The notes under the pieces: model-generated
Databases searched by the model: none
Seen by the model: the letters and a program-made list of their open reading frames with translations, nothing else
Told to the model about the DNA's origin: nothing
Part shown: one piece after another, positions 1,413 through 10,939 of the stretch
Position numbering within the stretch: the stretch's first letter is position 1
Layout: each line of letters opens with the position of its first letter
Assembly (NCBI GenBank): GCA_029856125.1
Contig: JAHQWJ010000014.1
Span: 64,001 to 128,000, forward strand
DNA length: 64,000 bases
Direction: 5' to 3'
Origin: Promethearchaeia archaeon
Lineage (GTDB): Archaea; Asgardarchaeota; Lokiarchaeia; Sigyniarchaeales; SOKP01
Translations under genes and position numbers: made by a program

Positions 1413-2738
1413 ATGATTAAAATGGCAGTAAAAGTAGCTTTTATGCAGAGTAGTGATTGCTGGGGATGTCATCAATCCTTATTGAACGCACATTTAGGAT
1501 TGTTGCCAGTTCTTCCAGCGCTCGAATTTGTGTATTGGCCAGCAGTTGTAGATTTCAAACTTGATTCACTAAAAGCGCGACCAGACGGTGATATTCTAGT
1601 AGGCTTCGTAGAAGGAAGTATGAGAACAAAAGCAGATGTAGAAAACGCCAAACTCATGAGGGCTAAGTGCCAACTCATAATAGCTTTTGGTAGTTGTTCT
1701 TGCTACGGCAATGTTCACGGATTAGCTAATGAGTGGGATATTGAAGAAGCTATCAAACGAAAGTATACGCAAGTAGAGTCGATTACTAACGAATCTCCGC
1801 ACGAACCAAAAGAACATATGCCGGGATTTACAGGAAAAATCGTTCCATTGGACGAAGTCATAAGCGTTGACGTATTTATGGCAGGTTGTCCTCCGAAACC
1901 AGAAGCTATCATAAGCGCAGTTCAATTTTTGCTTGGTCAAAAGCCACAGCCAATGGCAGATTTGTCTTTTTGTAACGATTGTTCGTTAAATAACGAAAAT
2001 TGTTTACTTGAAAAATACGAATTATGTTTTGGTCCCATTACTAGTATTGGTTGTACTTTAAAATGTACTGATAATGGAAGCCCATGCGTCGGCTGTCTCG
2101 GACCAGCAAAAACGGTCTCAGCAAGAGCAGAAAAATTGAAAACAATGACACAAAATATGCATCAGCTTAGCTCCGGCGACAAGAAGAATTTACACGAGTT
2201 CTTAACCTTGTTTTTAAATGTACCGTTAATGTCAGGATTTGATTTAGCGGGGGATATCTTAAAACAAGTAAGAAAAACGGGTGAGGCTCAAACCGCTTTA
2301 GCTAACGTACCTGTTGACACGGGAGATATATATGCAAACATCCTGAAATATCTAAAGAACAATAGAGAGTTCATAAGTATTTCAAATGTGTGCGACCAGT
2401 GCGACCTTGAGATCGGAAGTAAATCTCGAATGACGAAAGTTAAACGCGATTACGAAGGACTTCCAAATTCAACCGATTGTTTAATAGAACAAGGTTACCT
2501 ATGTGCAGGTCCGATAACAAGAGCAGGATGTGGTGGTTTGTGTATGAAAGTAAACACACCTTGTTCAGGTTGCTTTGGTCAAACAGCTTGGAATGTTGAT
2601 CAAGCTGAACGCTTTGCTGATGTAGTAACGAAGGGCTTCAATGTGGCTTTATCAAAAGAAGAATTGCTTGCGCAAGTTAAGGATAAGCTCGGCTTCATGG
2701 AAAAGTTTACATTAGCTACAAACAAAAATTATAGGTAG
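1413..2738 (+). CDS. vhuG: F420-non-reducing [NiFe(Se)] hydrogenase small subunit (VhuG/MvhG-like) with duplicated Fe-S module
   Basis: CWGC, VEGS, AFGSCSCYG and GCPP motifs. Two copies of the CxxC..CL....LC.GPIT..GC...C....PCxGC.G module. Confidence 0.88.
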   Translation: MIKMAVKVAFMQSSDCWGCHQSLLNAHLGLLPVLPALEFVYWPAVVDFKLDSLKARPDGDILVGFVEGSMRTKADVENAKLMRAKCQLIIAFGSCSCYGNVHGLANEWDIEEAIKRKYTQVESITNESPHEPKEHMPGFTGKIVPLDEVISVDVFMAGCPPKPEAIISAVQFLLGQKPQPMADLSFCNDCSLNNENCLLEKYELCFGPITSIGCTLKCTDNGSPCVGCLGPAKTVSARAEKLKTMTQNMHQLSSGDKKNLHEFLTLFLNVPLMSGFDLAGDILKQVRKTGEAQTALANVPVDTGDIYANILKYLKNNREFISISNVCDQCDLEIGSKSRMTKVKRDYEGLPNSTDCLIEQGYLCAGPITRAGCGGLCMKVNTPCSGCFGQTAWNVDQAERFADVVTKGFNVALSKEELLAQVKDKLGFMEKFTLATNKNYR

Positions 2739-2749
2739 GTGAAAAAAAG

Positions 2750-4054
2750 ATGGTAAAAGAAATAACAGTAGAACCAGTCACTCGATTAGAGGGACATGGT
2801 GGATTAAGAATTGTCATTGGAGATGACGGTAAGGTAAAAGATGCTCAGTTTAACATAACTTCGACACGATTTTTCGAGAAATTTCTTGAAGGACGTTATT
2901 GCGAACACATACCTAGAATCACGCCTAGAATTTGCGGAATTTGTCCAATCCCACATCATTTAACTCCCACAAAAGCTGTAGAAGACGCTTGGGGCGTTTC
3001 TATTCCAGAACCAGCTCGAAAATTGCGAATTTTGTTACAGAACGCGAAACAATATTCTAGTCATACGTTACATTTCTACGCACTCGCAGCACCTGATTTC
3101 TTATTAGGTCCGTTTGCGGATCCTGCGTTAAGGAATGTCGTTCATGTAATTAACAAAATGCCAGATGTTGGAGCAATGGCTTTGAAAATGATGGATTTCG
3201 GTCAAAAACTCTGTGCGGAGATTGGAGGAAAATCTGTTCATCCTGTTTCTGCGATAGTTGGAGGCATGAAAAAGCCAATGAGCGAAGCTGCTCGGGATAA
3301 GTTTTTGAAAATGATTCCTGAACAAGTCGAATTTGCAAAGAAGACTGTTGAGATCGGATTAAAAGTCGTCACCGATTATTGGGATGTCGTTGCTAATGTA
3401 GGTGTTGTTCCTACTTATTACTTAGGCATGACCAATAAAGGTGTCCATGATATTTACGAAGGAGATATTCGAATTGTTACACCTGATGGAAAGAAGATTG
3501 ATTACGATGTTCATAACTACTTAGACGCACTTGGTGAACATATTCCAGAGCATTCTTATGCGACACACATGTATTACAAGCCTGCAGGATATCCTGAGGG
3601 TATTTATCGTTCTAACACGTTAGCAATGATAAATTGTGCCGATAAAATGGCAACTCCTTTGGCAGATGGCGCACTTAAAGACATGAGAGATAAACTTGGA
3701 CCAATTTCCCATCACACCTTTGCTTATCACTGGGCTCGATTAATTGAATTAGTTGAGTCGATTGAGATGGTTGCGACACTATTACAGGATCCTGACATTG
3801 TAAATCCTGATTGTAAAACATTAGATGTCCAACCAAGAGAAGGAGAGGGTATAGGTATGACCGAAGCCCCGCGGGGCAATTTATTGTACCACATTTGGTC
3901 TGATGCTGATGGTATATGTAAGAAAGCAAATCTCTTAGTAGCGACAAATCATAACATTGCTGGAATTGAGAAAACACTTATGCACGTAGCAAAGCAGGTG
4001 TTTGAAGATAAGGCGTTAGAAGGATTAAAATTACCAGACCCTTGGATTGATTAA
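2750..4054 (+). CDS. vhuA: Group 3c [NiFe(Se)] hydrogenase large subunit lacking the C-terminal L2 motif (VhuA-type)
   Basis: VEPVTRLEGHG, L1 motif RICGICPIPH, EAPRGNLLYH, ANLLVATNHN. No DPCxxCxxH at the C-terminus. AGGTGA SD upstream. Confidence 0.92.
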   Translation: MVKEITVEPVTRLEGHGGLRIVIGDDGKVKDAQFNITSTRFFEKFLEGRYCEHIPRITPRICGICPIPHHLTPTKAVEDAWGVSIPEPARKLRILLQNAKQYSSHTLHFYALAAPDFLLGPFADPALRNVVHVINKMPDVGAMALKMMDFGQKLCAEIGGKSVHPVSAIVGGMKKPMSEAARDKFLKMIPEQVEFAKKTVEIGLKVVTDYWDVVANVGVVPTYYLGMTNKGVHDIYEGDIRIVTPDGKKIDYDVHNYLDALGEHIPEHSYATHMYYKPAGYPEGIYRSNTLAMINCADKMATPLADGALKDMRDKLGPISHHTFAYHWARLIELVESIEMVATLLQDPDIVNPDCKTLDVQPREGEGIGMTEAPRGNLLYHIWSDADGICKKANLLVATNHNIAGIEKTLMHVAKQVFEDKALEGLKLPDPWID

Positions 4055-4080
4055 AAAAAAGAGGAAACCGTGATTAAAAA

Positions 4081-4233
4081 ATGAGCGAAGAAATACCGGA
4101 AGGAGTAGTAAACCTTTTAGAAATGATTGTGCGTTGCTTCGATTGTTGACTATCGTGCGCAGCCCACATAACCGTTGTTAAAGAAAACGGTGAAGAGGTT
4201 TACTCTCGCAAGTTGAACGTTGGCTTAGGATGA
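4081..4233 (+). CDS. vhuU: Selenocysteine-containing hydrogenase subunit VhuU (50 aa, Sec at codon 23; missed by ORF track)
   Basis: MSEEIPEGVVNLLEMIVRCFDC-U(TGA 4147-4149)-LSCAAHITVVKENGEEVYSRKLNVGLG*. Supplies the L2 motif missing from VhuA. The UGA sits at the Ni-ligand position of DP(C/U)xxCxxH. Confidence 0.93.
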
Positions 4234-4290
4234 ATATCCAATAAAAACAATAGATTGGATATAACGCCCCCTGCCCGGGGTAAAAGCCAA
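4220..4290 (+). promoter_or_regulatory. Putative SECIS-like structured element
   Basis: AUGA (4230-4233), then perfect 9-bp stem ATATCCAAT(4234-4242)/ATTGGATAT(4254-4262) with A-rich loop AAAAACAATAG. GC hairpin CCCC/GGGG (4267-4280). Outer stem TTGGCTT(4220-4226)/AAGCCAA(4284-4290). Confidence 0.65.
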
Positions 4291-4329
4291 TAAATATAAA
4301 ATAAATGGAAATGAAAAATTGGAAAAGAC

Positions 4330-4845
4330 GTGAAAAAAATGACAGTAGATTTTGAATTTCGAAAACAAGTTATGGATTATCATATCGGGTCTGATTTAAT
4401 TAAGTATTGTTATCAATGTAGTCGTTGTGCAGATAACTGTCCAATTACTAACGTAACGACAGACTTCTATACGACTACAGGATACAATCCAAGAAGCAAC
4501 ATTCTTAATGCTTTGTTAGGATATAAGGAAGCAATATTTTCATCTGATGCCTTGACCATTTGGGGTTGTACCGTTTGTGATACATGTGATGAGGTTTGTC
4601 CTCAGAATATCGAATTAACTGAGATTTTTACACTATTAAAAAATCAAAGTGTAGCAAACGGAGATGCGCCTGATTTTATCTACTCGCAAGCAAAAGCAAT
4701 TTTTGATAGTGCGAAAGCGATCCCATCTCAACCTGCTATAGAGCGTAGACGAGAACAATTGGGTCTACCCCCTGTTGCAATGCCGGACATTAGTGAACTC
4801 CAAACTTTATTAAAAAATATTGGAGTAGAAAAAAAGCTAAAATAA
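4330..4845 (+). CDS. hdrC: Heterodisulfide reductase subunit C
   Basis: CYQCSRCADNCP and WGCTVCDTCDEVCPQ (2x[4Fe-4S]); RREQLGLPP tail; precedes hdrB. Confidence 0.9.
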   Translation: MKKMTVDFEFRKQVMDYHIGSDLIKYCYQCSRCADNCPITNVTTDFYTTTGYNPRSNILNALLGYKEAIFSSDALTIWGCTVCDTCDEVCPQNIELTEIFTLLKNQSVANGDAPDFIYSQAKAIFDSAKAIPSQPAIERRREQLGLPPVAMPDISELQTLLKNIGVEKKLK

Positions 4846-4850
4846 GAGGA

Positions 4851-5735
4851 ATGATGAGAAAAATGACAGACTATAAAATGTTTGAAGGTTGTACTATCGG
4901 AAACCGTATTCCTTTCATTGAAGCGGCATCCAGAAAAGTTTTTGATAAAGTTGGAATTGAGACTTCACAAACGAACTTTACTTGTTGTCCAGATCCCACC
5001 GGCATGAAATCGTTTGATAACGACGCTTGGCTAGCCATTGGTGCGAGAAATCTATGTTTAGCGGAAGCTGAAGGAAAAGACATAATTTCTCTATGTAATG
5101 GTTGTACTAATACGCTTCGAGGAGTCCAACATCAATTAAAACACGATTCATGGAAAATGGATAAGGTCAATAAAGAGCTCGCTAAGATCGGAAAAGAATA
5201 CAAAGGCACAATAGATATTAAGCATTTCGTTGATGTGCTGAGCGATAAATTAGACAAAGTCAAAGAAGCAATAACTAAACCACTTGACGGTCTAAAAGTC
5301 GCAGTCCATCCTGGGTGTCACTATATGCGACCTGCAGAATGGATGGAATCCGACGATCCTATGAGGCCAACTACGCTAAAGAAACTCGTAGAAGCAAGTG
5401 GAGCGACAGTTGTTGATTACGGGGAGGAAATATTGTGCTGCGGAAGTGCTGTGACTAACGCTTACGAAGAACACGGGTTTGCAAACTTAAAGATTAAGAT
5501 GGACGCTATCAAAAAATCGGGCGCAGATGTGATTGCTGTAAATTGTCCAGCGTGTTATCAACAGTTCGATACGAGACAACGAGATTTAGGTAAGGCATAC
5601 GAGACCGAATACGCAACTCCCGTGTTATATATCACAGAGCTTTACGCATTAGCAATGGGCTTCACTCCAGACGACATCGGCTTAAAATTTCACAGAGTTC
5701 GATTGAAATCCACGTTAGAAAAACTTGGTTTATAA
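4851..5735 (+). CDS. hdrB: Heterodisulfide reductase subunit B
   Basis: Two CCG domains: FEGC..TCCP..ARNL..CNGC and HPGCHYMRP..CCG..CPACYQQFD. Confidence 0.93.
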   Translation: MMRKMTDYKMFEGCTIGNRIPFIEAASRKVFDKVGIETSQTNFTCCPDPTGMKSFDNDAWLAIGARNLCLAEAEGKDIISLCNGCTNTLRGVQHQLKHDSWKMDKVNKELAKIGKEYKGTIDIKHFVDVLSDKLDKVKEAITKPLDGLKVAVHPGCHYMRPAEWMESDDPMRPTTLKKLVEASGATVVDYGEEILCCGSAVTNAYEEHGFANLKIKMDAIKKSGADVIAVNCPACYQQFDTRQRDLGKAYETEYATPVLYITELYALAMGFTPDDIGLKFHRVRLKSTLEKLGL

Positions 5736-7609: not shown

Positions 7610-9319
7610 TTAGAGAAAAATCTCCATTCCAGGCGGAAGCCACGGTTTATAAATTCGCATATGATCTGTAAAGAAATTTGAGAAGCCGTTTTTTAAACAT
7701 AAATCTAACCAATGAAATACTACTTCTTGCCCATGTTTTTCTTTAGAAATTTTTCCGAACATATTACTCAAATAACTTCCGATTGTATTTTTATCCTCTG
7801 AAGGTATATCTGTTGCTTGGATATTTACTAAGATGTTTTCAAGTTGCACCATGTAAGATTTAAAATTTGTTAAGAGTTCTAATATTTTAGCTCTATCTTG
7901 AGGATAATCCTTGGGTTTATTGGTTAATTTACTAAACTTCCCAAGATTTTTCATAAGACCTTTAATGTTGTCTAAAAAGTGTGGTATATTTAACTTGACT
8001 AAATCTTGTTCCAGGTTCCTAGTTATAAAGGTATTCATTGTTATTTTATTGTAAAAATAAATAACTGGTAAAGAGATTGTTTTGTCAAACTGTTTAATTA
8101 ACGGAATTCCCATTGTATAATATCTTGCCTCACCAGTACCTGCAATATGTATTGCTGGTTTGATAGTTTTTGAAACTAAATATTGGCGTGATTCAACTCT
8201 GGGAGTAAAAAAAGTAACATGTTCAGATAGATCGGGGTTATTCTTTTCGAGACAAAAATCTATTAAATTTCCGCAATTATCGCACTCACACTTAACGTGG
8301 ATCATTGAGGTATAATCTTGCCCGGTTAATTCCAATCTTCTGCAGTTACACTGTTCATTCGCGCATTCATAAAAAAAGGGGACAAAATCAGGTCTAATCT
8401 CTCTTAAGGGAGGGCGAATATTATGCTCCATAAATTGATTTTTCAAATTGATATAAGTATCAACATACCGGCTTTGATTCTCTAATAGAGTTTCATAAAA
8501 TGGTGTTAATAGTTTCTTATATTCTATATCTGAAGCAGAAATGAAAAGATATCCTTGGTCAAAGATAACATTGGAAATTGTCCCAATTATGTTGATGAAC
8601 CAATCTGTATAGTTCTCTGCGTTATTGTGGGCTAACTTGATTAATCGAAGCGCTTCTTCTAACCGTTCTTCTAATAGCTTTTTATGCCAATTATCTTCTA
8701 TGCTGGAATTAATGGAATTACTGTATTTTTTTCTAATTTCTTGAAATTGCTCCATGAGATAAGACACAGATGGTAGCGGCAGATTTCTAATTCTCATACC
8801 AAGAAATTCCTTTTCTATTTCAGGTTTTATTGAAATTGAAAATCCATTAGGAGAATCGCTTTGCGAAAATTTAGTTTTTATTAATTCTGAATGGACCTTA
8901 TCATAATCAGCAACGTAAAAAATTGGAATTACGCTAGTATCAAGATTGGCGAAAGCTGCTCCGCAAGCAATTTTGTTAAAAAGAAACCTTTCACCACCTA
9001 AAAATTTTGGTTGATGCGAAACTTCTAAACTCAGACTATTATTATCGGTAAGAAAATTTTTCAAATGTCTCTTAGCTTTGTCAGTTAGTAGATTATATTT
9101 CTTATTTGTGTTTTCAAATATTTTCCCCATTGCTCCTTTTATTTCATCGCTATTTGGATCTTTTTTCGTTTCTCTGTTTACTTTCTTGGCAAGGAAAATG
9201 GCATCGCTCATAGATTGGGGTATAAGATCGTTCATTCCTTCAGAAATCCAAGATTTCTGTCCTTCTAAGGCATATAAGAGGTAATATTTTAATGGGTCTT
9301 CGAATTTATCGTTTGACAT
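7610..9319 (-). CDS. bshC: BshC-like putative cysteine-adding enzyme (bacillithiol-type thiol synthesis)
   Basis: SHQPKFLGG..LFNK, PIFYVADYD..HSE and TPRVESRQ...AIHIAGTGEARYY parallel the BshC motifs GQQ..GP.Y..YK, PVFW.A.EDHD..E and SPNV..RP...GGPGE..YW. 569 aa; next to bshB1. Confidence 0.72.
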   Translation of the reverse strand: MSNDKFEDPLKYYLLYALEGQKSWISEGMNDLIPQSMSDAIFLAKKVNRETKKDPNSDEIKGAMGKIFENTNKKYNLLTDKAKRHLKNFLTDNNSLSLEVSHQPKFLGGERFLFNKIACGAAFANLDTSVIPIFYVADYDKVHSELIKTKFSQSDSPNGFSISIKPEIEKEFLGMRIRNLPLPSVSYLMEQFQEIRKKYSNSINSSIEDNWHKKLLEERLEEALRLIKLAHNNAENYTDWFINIIGTISNVIFDQGYLFISASDIEYKKLLTPFYETLLENQSRYVDTYINLKNQFMEHNIRPPLREIRPDFVPFFYECANEQCNCRRLELTGQDYTSMIHVKCECDNCGNLIDFCLEKNNPDLSEHVTFFTPRVESRQYLVSKTIKPAIHIAGTGEARYYTMGIPLIKQFDKTISLPVIYFYNKITMNTFITRNLEQDLVKLNIPHFLDNIKGLMKNLGKFSKLTNKPKDYPQDRAKILELLTNFKSYMVQLENILVNIQATDIPSEDKNTIGSYLSNMFGKISKEKHGQEVVFHWLDLCLKNGFSNFFTDHMRIYKPWLPPGMEIFL

Positions 9320-9330
9320 CTTTATTTTAC

Positions 9331-10026
9331 CTACAATTTCAAGTTTTCAAAATCCACCATTAAATGTTCAAGGCTAATAAATCCTTCGGCGTATTTTACC
9401 CCAATTTGATATCCCAAATATCCAGCACGTTCCTTTATATAATCAAAAATTCTTAAATGCTTTTTATTATCAACGAACTGTGATTTATAGGCTTTAAGCG
9501 CATTTATTTTTTCTTCGATAGAATCAGAGATATCGATTAAAAAGTCCAGTTTTCGATTCTTGTCCATTAAATGTGAATGATCAAAATAAAATACATATTT
9601 AGGGTAATGTTCCGGATATTCGGATTCGGTTTTTGTTAGTTTTGCTTGAAATTTAGCGGCGTTTACAATCTGATGGCAAGCAATGTGGTCTGGGTGCCAA
9701 TCATTAGGGGGGTGGGTAATAAGAATATTGGGTTTATATTTTCTAATCACTTCAGAAACTTTTTTTCTATTCTCTATAGTATTTTCAATATATCTATTTG
9801 TCATGTCGAGAGTAATTCTTAGATCTAGATTTAAAATTTCAGAAGCTGCTTTAGCCTCGGCCTTTCTTTTTTCAACAGTACCGAATGGTGTGGGTTCCCC
9901 ATTTGATAAGTCTAAAACCCCAACTCTTTTACCTCTTTTCTTGTAATGGGCAATTGTTCCTCCACATCCAATTTCTGCGTCATCAGGATGGGCCCCTATT
10001 ACTAAAATATCTAACTCTGGCTTCAT
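9331..10026 (-). CDS. bshB1: PIG-L/BshB1-type N-acetylglucosaminyl deacetylase (start revised to ATG at 10026)
   Basis: MKPELDILVIGAHPDDAEIGCGGTIA, LSNGE, HPDH, IDISD..K..A.KAYKSQF, GVKYAEGF. Confidence 0.85.
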   Translation of the reverse strand: MKPELDILVIGAHPDDAEIGCGGTIAHYKKRGKRVGVLDLSNGEPTPFGTVEKRKAEAKAASEILNLDLRITLDMTNRYIENTIENRKKVSEVIRKYKPNILITHPPNDWHPDHIACHQIVNAAKFQAKLTKTESEYPEHYPKYVFYFDHSHLMDKNRKLDFLIDISDSIEEKINALKAYKSQFVDNKKHLRIFDYIKERAGYLGYQIGVKYAEGFISLEHLMVDFENLKL

Positions 10027-10036
10027 TTTAATCCTA

Positions 10037-10939
10037 CTAAGTTTCCAGTTCTCTAATTTGTGTAAATATTGCTTCTTGTATTTTTTTAAAGTTATATTTA
10101 TTAATATCATCCACACTATTGAAGTAATTTGAAAAAATTGACTTAAAAACATTAATATCTGTTTTTAAAGGAGCTTTGATGAGTGATTCAATTAACTGAA
10201 TATACTTTTCAATTCTTTCTTCTCCTTTCTTAAACAAAAAGCTATCTTTTGCATTTTTTAAAATTGCATCTCTATCTTTATATATTACTGGAACCCCTTT
10301 TTCAACAATTTTATATCCTTTTTTCTTTGCTTTAATCCAGATTTCGATGGGTATTTCGTAACCATTTACTATTAAATCCAAATCATTAATCGCACTACAT
10401 TCATATGCTTTTAGTCCACAAAAAGCATCTGAAATAGAAAATCCGAGTGTATTGAGAATTCCCGTGATGATCGCGTTTACAAGAAATCTATCTTTCCACG
10501 GTTTTTGCCAGTAATGGTTTGAATTTTTATATCTTGAACCAGAGATTATTTGCTCTGGTGGATTTTCAAGAATTAAATCAATAAACTTGTATAAACACTC
10601 TGGTTCGTGTTGACCATCCATATCGAACGATATAATCCACGGAAAATTCATTTCTTTAGCGTAACTAAAACCTCTTATGAGTGTATAACCATAACCTTTA
10701 TTTTCTTTAAAGTTAACAATATTAAAAAGGGAATCGTGATTGTTCTTATTTAAAATTTGCATGGTTCCATCAGTAGAACCATCATTAATGATAAGGATTT
10801 TCAAATTGAATTCGTTTCTTTTTTGCGAATTTTGTTTTACACGACGGAGATGTTCTAATATATCTTCAATGTTTTCCTCTTCGTTAAAACACGGGATTAG
10901 TAAAAGAATGTCAACTATTTTTTCAGAAATATCGAACAA
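10037..10939 (-). CDS. Glycosyltransferase family 2 (DPM-synthase-like)
   Basis: IPCFNEE, INDGSTDGT, NKGYG, DMDGQH, GSRY, ISDAFCGLKAY. Confidence 0.9.
   Translation of the reverse strand: MFDISEKIVDILLLIPCFNEEENIEDILEHLRRVKQNSQKRNEFNLKILIINDGSTDGTMQILNKNNHDSLFNIVNFKENKGYGYTLIRGFSYAKEMNFPWIISFDMDGQHEPECLYKFIDLILENPPEQIISGSRYKNSNHYWQKPWKDRFLVNAIITGILNTLGFSISDAFCGLKAYECSAINDLDLIVNGYEIPIEIWIKAKKKGYKIVEKGVPVIYKDRDAILKNAKDSFLFKKGEERIEKYIQLIESLIKAPLKTDINVFKSIFSNYFNSVDDINKYNFKKIQEAIFTQIRELET

Follow-up and report, generated by a model that had tools for sequence, protein, structure and literature searches.

Two cysteinyl-aminosugar thiols, mycothiol and bacillithiol, form the described background against which the locus reported here has to be judged. 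In the mycothiol pathway (MshA-MshB-MshC-MshD), a cysteinyl-glucosamine (Cys-GlcN) core is carried by a different aglycone than in bacillithiol; MshA is a glycosyltransferase of family GT4 and MshC resembles cysteinyl-tRNA synthetase (CysRS). Bacillithiol is formed in three steps by the GT4 enzyme BshA, the deacetylase BshB1 and the ligase BshC. Homologues of BshA and BshC have been noted in Asgard archaea (Rawat & Maupin-Furlow, 2020; PMC7278568), bacillithiol has been detected in no archaeon (PMC7278568), and a 2025 RefSeq survey reported no complete archaeal bacillithiol pathway (PMC12719100). Planctomycetes have been named as a major lineage without a documented or predicted low-molecular-weight thiol (PMC6282198). 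Here, we describe a gene cluster from a 64,000-nucleotide stretch of a Lokiarchaeia genome (contig JAHQWJ010000014.1, positions 64,001 to 128,000; this whole stretch is called the window and all coordinates refer to it), which combines a glycosyltransferase of family GT2 with a BshB1-type deacetylase and a BshC-fold ligase. We put the probability at roughly 55% that its product is an undescribed soluble Cys-aminosugar thiol, bacillithiol-like in role and differing from bacillithiol in aglycone or linkage. No published description of a GT2 route to a bacillithiol-like thiol was found in the literature searched, which lay mostly outside subscription journals.

The three genes are co-oriented on the minus strand. 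The GT2 gene (10939-10037; TTG start, 300 aa, PF00535 E-value 1e-23) is followed after 10 bp by the deacetylase gene (10026-9331; 231 aa), and this gene after 11 bp by that of the BshC-fold protein (9319-7610; 569 aa), so that the packed operon proposed in the initial annotation is real. An Amidohydrolase_2 gene (PF04909; 6616-7599, plus strand) is convergent to bshC and lies 10 bp from the bshC stop codon. All 17 close loci retained the gene order and the adjoining amidohydrolase, while their flanks varied. A sister family contributed two further genomes with the same GT2-bshB1-bshC order. The order also occurs on CP163304.1, a complete chromosome of 6.27 Mb, on which the four genes share one orientation and the BshC-like protein carries the NCBI label Ca. 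Lokiarchaeum ossiferum. Within the source genome's own family (f1), the cluster is patchy (19 of 135 genomes): it was absent from all 36 genomes with a completeness of 90% or more and a contamination of 5% or less, and present in 19 of the 99 others. Its location on a complete chromosome and on contigs longer than 400 kb argues against a binning error. A promoter and terminator scan of the locus yielded chance-level signals only.

When we searched the source genome, which is 99% complete, for BshA (TIGR03999), the best GT4 protein reached 130 bits versus a cut-off of 273.7, and the N-terminal motif of BshA was not found in a six-frame scan. Among 201 genomes of the Asgard phylum, a BshC of the archaeal clade was present in 103, BshA in 92 (87 of them above the cut-off, mostly adjoining bshC) and the GT2 subfamily in 12. 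GT2 and BshA never occurred together (0 genomes vs. 5.5 expected), and the 103 BshC genomes divide into 87 with BshA, 11 with GT2 and 5 with neither. In family f22, GT2, bshB1 and bshC are unlinked yet co-occur, and BshA was not found there. A second sample comprised 121 genomes of Planctomycetota, assigned to that phylum by the NCBI label on a protein of the centre genome. Here, BshA was detected in 58 genomes and GT2 in 21, again without overlap (0 vs. 10 expected). The exclusion thus repeats in two domains, and together with the lack of BshA in the source genome it supports the initial proposal that the GT2 stands in for BshA. In two genomes of family f27 (G123 and G190), BshA and the amidohydrolase were detected but no BshC of the archaeal clade; these genomes may use a bacterial-type BshC.

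Planctomycetota and their neighbours hold the nearest bacterial relatives of the GT2, and the restriction of the system to archaea, which had been assumed at the outset, was therefore too narrow. In planctomycetes, the gene downstream of the GT2 gene codes for an unannotated product of roughly 520 aa, and in some cases bshB1 comes next; BshB1 itself was present in 21 of 21 GT2 genomes. The 520-aa partner keeps the BshC motifs in order. It was missed by Pfam, NCBIfam and PDB profile searches, and a first hhalign comparison with a BshC profile built from Loki sequences only was not significant (0.6%, E-value 0.095). With deep profiles, hhalign gave 93.5% to the Asgard BshCs and 99% to the pooled set (reversed-sequence controls, 5.1 bits or less), and the ESM Atlas lead for this protein stood at 0.86. 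These profile comparisons link the partner to the BshC superfamily as a putative remote homologue. This homologue occurred in 20 of the 21 GT2 genomes and in no other sampled genome; in the 21st genome the GT2 is broken. Regarding the phylum as a whole, 57 of the 58 planctomycete BshA hits were above the cut-off and mostly lay beside bshB1, and this BshA frequency contrasts with a 2018 survey of finished genomes, which had left the phylum without a predicted thiol pathway.

The 569-aa protein of the window matched PF10079 above the gathering threshold (E-value 1.9e-7). Its score against the BshC equivalog TIGR03998 (28 bits) was below the cut-off of 265.8, and the other archaeal-clade BshCs tested also stayed under it (60-103 bits). 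Its homologues are labelled Lokiarchaeia or Promethearchaeota. A PDB search with the single sequence gave no match, and profile and fold comparisons both found BshC. The AlphaFold model (predicted local distance difference test score, pLDDT, 93) matched the B. subtilis BshC 4WBD far better than any other structure (Foldseek E-value 1.9e-16, TM-score 0.64), with a Z-score of 30.2, a root-mean-square deviation of 2.9 over 457 residues and 13% identity. As modeled, the protein has the BshC fold over its whole length. It carries HQP (H102-P104) and the cysteine pattern that had initially been taken as signs of a changed product. Of this cysteine cluster, only C319, C324, C346 and C349 are invariant, and they form a Cys4 ribbon insertion. 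HQ(P/S) and this Cys4 ribbon also occur in BshA-partnered Asgard BshCs, a canonical BshC scoring above the cut-off has AHQP, and the window protein falls into one archaeal clade with the BshCs of bshA-bshB-bshC operons. Judged from these sequences, both features mark the archaeal BshC clade and not the product.

Two further observations concern the BshC superfamily. The second-closest solved fold to the model was class I lysyl-tRNA synthetase (1IRX; Z-score 20.9, 296 aligned residues), which clearly outscored CysRS and the remaining class I enzymes, and this likeness bears on the origin and the chemistry of BshC. Moreover, a further BshC-like family came to light ("HQPN"; P0253-P0344), which is large and for the most part without Pfam matches; it has 67 full-length representatives, often with a Cys ribbon. 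In the loci looked at (L078:5358-8882; L076:6603-13190), genes for PIG-L, GT4 and DegT proteins and for UDP-sugar dehydrogenase stand beside its members, or, as in L081, a RuBisCO-like gene is nearby; possibly the family represents further aminosugar-acylation pathways.

The deacetylase, a member of the PIG-L/LmbE group, passes the BshB1 equivalog TIGR04001 with 210.7 bits (cut-off 182.5), and its metal sites (HPDD at 13-16, H111/H114) align with those of 2IXD and 6P2T. In a tree of 78 sequences, which included GT2-partnered BshB1s of Loki, f22, planctomycete and metagenomic origin, all GT2-partnered enzymes, archaeal and bacterial, formed one clade (support 99/97) that is separate from the BshA-partnered deacetylases of both phyla. 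Within this clade, PTP at 45-47 and N77-R78 are invariant and K/R129 is nearly so, whereas the corresponding residues in planctomycete enzymes partnered with BshA are G(T/S)R, D-G and G. The clade-specific loop residues are retained even where GT2, bshB1 and bshC are unlinked. From the altered substrate-loop residues we infer a different substrate, which the sequences suggest to be probably more anionic. The GT2-partnered BshCs of Asgard archaea are of the local archaeal type and far from the planctomycete partner; as a single clade they gave p = 0.23 in the approximately unbiased (AU) test. GT2 and BshB1 appear to travel as a unit that plugs into each lineage's own BshC.

The product of 10037-10939 is a GT-A fold glycosyltransferase of a dedicated subfamily that is similar to dolichyl-phosphate mannose (Dol-P-Man) synthase (DPMS) and replaces BshA. 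Its best NCBIfam matches are PpgS, AglJ and ArnC, and its best PDB sequence match is PfDPMS (5MLZ). PfDPMS grips the phosphate of Dol-P with R117, R131 and S135, and its amphipathic interface helices (IFH1, IFH2) bind the isoprene and the membrane (PMC5526996). The GT2 has the motif DxDxQH at 106-111, with D106, D108, Q110 and H111 invariant in the subfamily. According to the alignment, R117 and R131 correspond to R136 and R151 of its anion site and the S135 position to N155, all three being invariant in the subfamily. It can be seen that the DxDxQH motif and the Arg/Arg acceptor-phosphate site of polyprenyl-phosphate glycosyltransferases are present, with Ser exchanged for Asn. C174, K177, R242 and Y246 are further subfamily-invariant residues; R242 occurs in 55 of the 58 members and is F in most generic relatives, and the position of Y246 is mostly hydrophobic there.

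The hydrophobic, basic amphipathic IFH1/IFH2 of polyprenyl-phosphate glycosyltransferases were not found in the GT2 subfamily: as a sequence proxy only, the Kyte-Doolittle (KD) values of its helices are -0.67/-0.74 and their charges +0.5/-0.4, compared with +0.31/+0.41 and +2.4/+2.2 for 52 generic DPMS-like relatives. None of the 58 members has a transmembrane segment. The polar interface helices and the gained R242 point to a soluble polyanion as acceptor and disfavour the lipid-linked product that had also been considered. The usual general-base helix (residues 193-198) contains no acid conserved in the subfamily, which fits a self-activated phosphate nucleophile or front-face retention, both of which are known GT-A chemistry. 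The initial annotation had called the enzyme inverting and its product hence beta-linked. Mannosylglycerate and glucosyl-3-phosphoglycerate synthases (MGS, GpgS; families GT78, GT81 and GT55) are retaining GT-A enzymes acting on small hydroxy acids, and MGS has a helical extension at its C-terminus. The GT2 model gives tied scores for Dol-P-Man synthase (Z-score 20.8) and MGS (2bo4; Z-score 19.9, 262 aligned residues, 12% identity), and GpgS follows with 18.6; sequence identity to DPMS is 25% versus the 12% to MGS. The stereochemistry is unreadable from the GT-A fold, and the GT2 label leaves the anomer unfixed.

The following route would be consistent with these data. Using a metal ion bound at DxDxQH and a nucleoside diphosphate-N-acetylhexosamine, most likely UDP-GlcNAc, the GT2 would transfer the sugar to a small soluble polyanion, for which R136, R151, R242, N155 and K177 would form the binding site; an N-acetylhexosamine is proposed as donor because the partner enzyme is a deacetylase. 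Two kinds of acceptor come into question, and we consider them about equally probable: a phosphorylated small polyol or hydroxy acid, with its phosphate as the inverting nucleophile (compare Dol-P-Man synthase), and a hydroxy acid that attacks from the front face with retention as in MGS. The dedicated BshB1, the family assignment of which is established, would then remove the N-acetyl group, and the resident archaeal BshC would add cysteine, a reaction suggested by BshC genetics on top of the fold. The amidohydrolase would probably recycle conjugates, and the end product would serve as a redox buffer similar to bacillithiol. In a more specific form, which is possible but which we regard as doubtful, the product would represent a third class of Cys-aminosugar thiols after mycothiol and bacillithiol, with the sugar attached via a phosphodiester or to a phosphorylated aglycone by a DPMS relative that has lost membrane binding. 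This class would be common to both domains, with Lokiarchaeia and another Asgard family on the archaeal side and some of the Planctomycetota on the bacterial side.

Three other explanations have to be weighed against a new soluble thiol. The locus might make ordinary bacillithiol by non-orthologous displacement, if the GT2 were a retaining GT-A enzyme forming alpha-GlcNAc-L-malate. The structural tie with MGS and the proximity to GpgS agree with this explanation, malate binding by several of the Arg residues is conceivable, the partner BshC shares its clade with BshA-partnered BshCs, and the strict exclusion of GT2 and BshA fits redundancy. However, sequence and motifs of the GT2 are DPMS-like, and the loop changes of its deacetylase clade persist even when the genes are unlinked, so that we judge ordinary bacillithiol rather unlikely. 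It appears less probable still that the BshC-fold enzyme adds another amino acid or an acyl group and that a soluble non-thiol aminosugar amide results. Such a product would accord with the similarity of the fold to class I lysyl-tRNA synthetase, with the other BshC-like families in sugar or surface-polysaccharide loci containing GT4, DegT and UDP-sugar dehydrogenase genes, and with the strong divergence of the planctomycete partner, but the window BshC falls into the clade found in bshA-bshB-bshC operons and the exclusion of the bacillithiol pathway implies the same physiological role. At a marginally lower level we place a lipid-linked route, in which the GT2 would form a polyprenyl-phospho-HexNAc (compare PpgS, ArnC and AglJ) to be deacetylated and acylated to a membrane glycolipid or a donor for envelope modification. 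The database matches of the GT2 and its conserved Dol-P phosphate site (R136/R151, N155) are what this route would predict. Its polar interface helices with an invariant Arg in IFH2, the lack of transmembrane segments and the soluble bacillithiol-type partners are not; moreover, no recurrent flippase, GT-C or phosphatase gene was found in the neighbourhoods of the cluster loci, and a lipid product leaves the BshA exclusivity unexplained.

Several points weigh against a new thiol. A YpdA-type reductase was not found. The separate BshB1 clade could be explained by co-transfer alone without a new substrate, and the B. subtilis BshB1 likewise has an Arg at the R78 position. The overlap counts ignore kinship, related genomes not being independent trials, and the closest solved-structure sequence relatives of the GT2 are mostly polyprenyl-phosphate transferases. 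Finally, according to a 2015 review (PMC4360819), even the Bacillus BshC had until then resisted reconstitution of its activity in vitro.

Among the neighbouring genes, the amidohydrolase was present in all 19 cluster genomes of the family and in none of its 116 others, and in 87 of the 201 Asgard genomes, only in families carrying BshC or BshA of either type. Since it also tracks BshA-type families, it is not specific to the GT2 version; it was not found in two planctomycete GT2 genomes. It is probably an accessory enzyme of the thiol, with a role in turnover or as a candidate new thiol-conjugate amidase. DinB_2 genes occur near the cluster in several loci and fit with thiol use, and a thioredoxin-like gene adjoins the unlinked GT2. 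In a subgroup of Loki genomes, a URO-D/MtaA-like gene recurs beside the cluster together with one or two DinB_2 genes (L005:8851-11163; similarly in L006, L009, L011-L015 and L017).

The mvhG-mvhA-hdrC-hdrB genes of the window (1413-5735, plus strand) were judged to lie outside the thiol system. It had been speculated that HdrBC acts physiologically on the disulfide of the thiol, as hdrB ends at 5735, only 1.9 kb from the cluster. However, hdrBC is adjacent in only 2 of 17 close loci, 130 of the 135 family genomes have HdrB and only 19 the cluster, and HdrB orthologues with 92-96% identity occur in 12 genomes without the cluster. Synteny and distribution thus led us to reject the link as highly improbable, and hdrBC is a chance neighbour. 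Unrelated to this question, the MvhG/VhuG-like subunit (1413-2738, 441 aa) showed three matched stretches, which suggests a duplicated C-terminal Fe-S region.

Compared with the initial annotation, the replacement of BshA has held up and an undescribed thiol remains the probable product: no canonical bshA was detected, the GT2 is syntenic in relatives and the 569-aa protein has the BshC fold. The beta linkage, the lipid link, the reading of the HQP motif and the Cys cluster, the Hdr connection and the limitation to archaea were not upheld. The locus would add a new thiol backbone or, alternatively, a second unrelated enzyme for the first step of bacillithiol synthesis. It would also provide a member of the DPMS family with a soluble acceptor, and it would reveal which redox buffer Asgard archaea use. 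With this gene set, which the complete chromosome CP163304.1 also carries, the planctomycete and archaeal thiol questions become open to direct tests.

When the locus is compared with known systems, mycothiol provides a precedent for aglycone swapping on a Cys-GlcN core, but matches to MshB and Mca are far below the cut-off here and a recurrent acetyltransferase or phosphatase neighbour was not seen. The polyprenyl-phosphate glycosyltransferases (PfDPMS 5MLZ, PpgS, ArnC, GtrB) share with our GT2 the GT-A fold, DxDxQH and an anion site of the R117/R131/S135 type. They differ from it, as the GT2 has polar interface helices, an extra invariant Arg and Cys, no membrane anchor, and BshB and BshC as partners. 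MGS and GpgS (2BO4, 7P5L) have a tied structural score and a soluble anionic acceptor such as we propose, but only 12-16% identity and neither deacetylase nor ligase partners. The Asgard bshA-bshB-bshC operons (87 of 201 genomes) share the BshC clade, in most families the HQ motif and the Cys4 ribbon, and mostly the amidohydrolase; they contain a canonical BshA and a deacetylase of another clade (26-34% identical to that of the window). With bacillithiol synthesis proper (BshA GT4-BshB1-BshC; PDB 4WBD, 6P2T), the GT2 set has in common the three-step logic, a BshB1 above TIGR04001, the BshC fold over the whole length and the same genomic slot, which it fills exclusively of BshA. In contrast, its first enzyme has an unrelated GT-A fold and no BshA is present, its BshB1 comes from a clade of its own in which the substrate loops are altered, its BshC is 13% identical in the structural comparison, below TIGR03998 and equipped with a Cys4 ribbon, and YpdA is lacking. 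Thus, the GT2 route works like the bacillithiol pathway, but with respect to BshA it is not a member of it.

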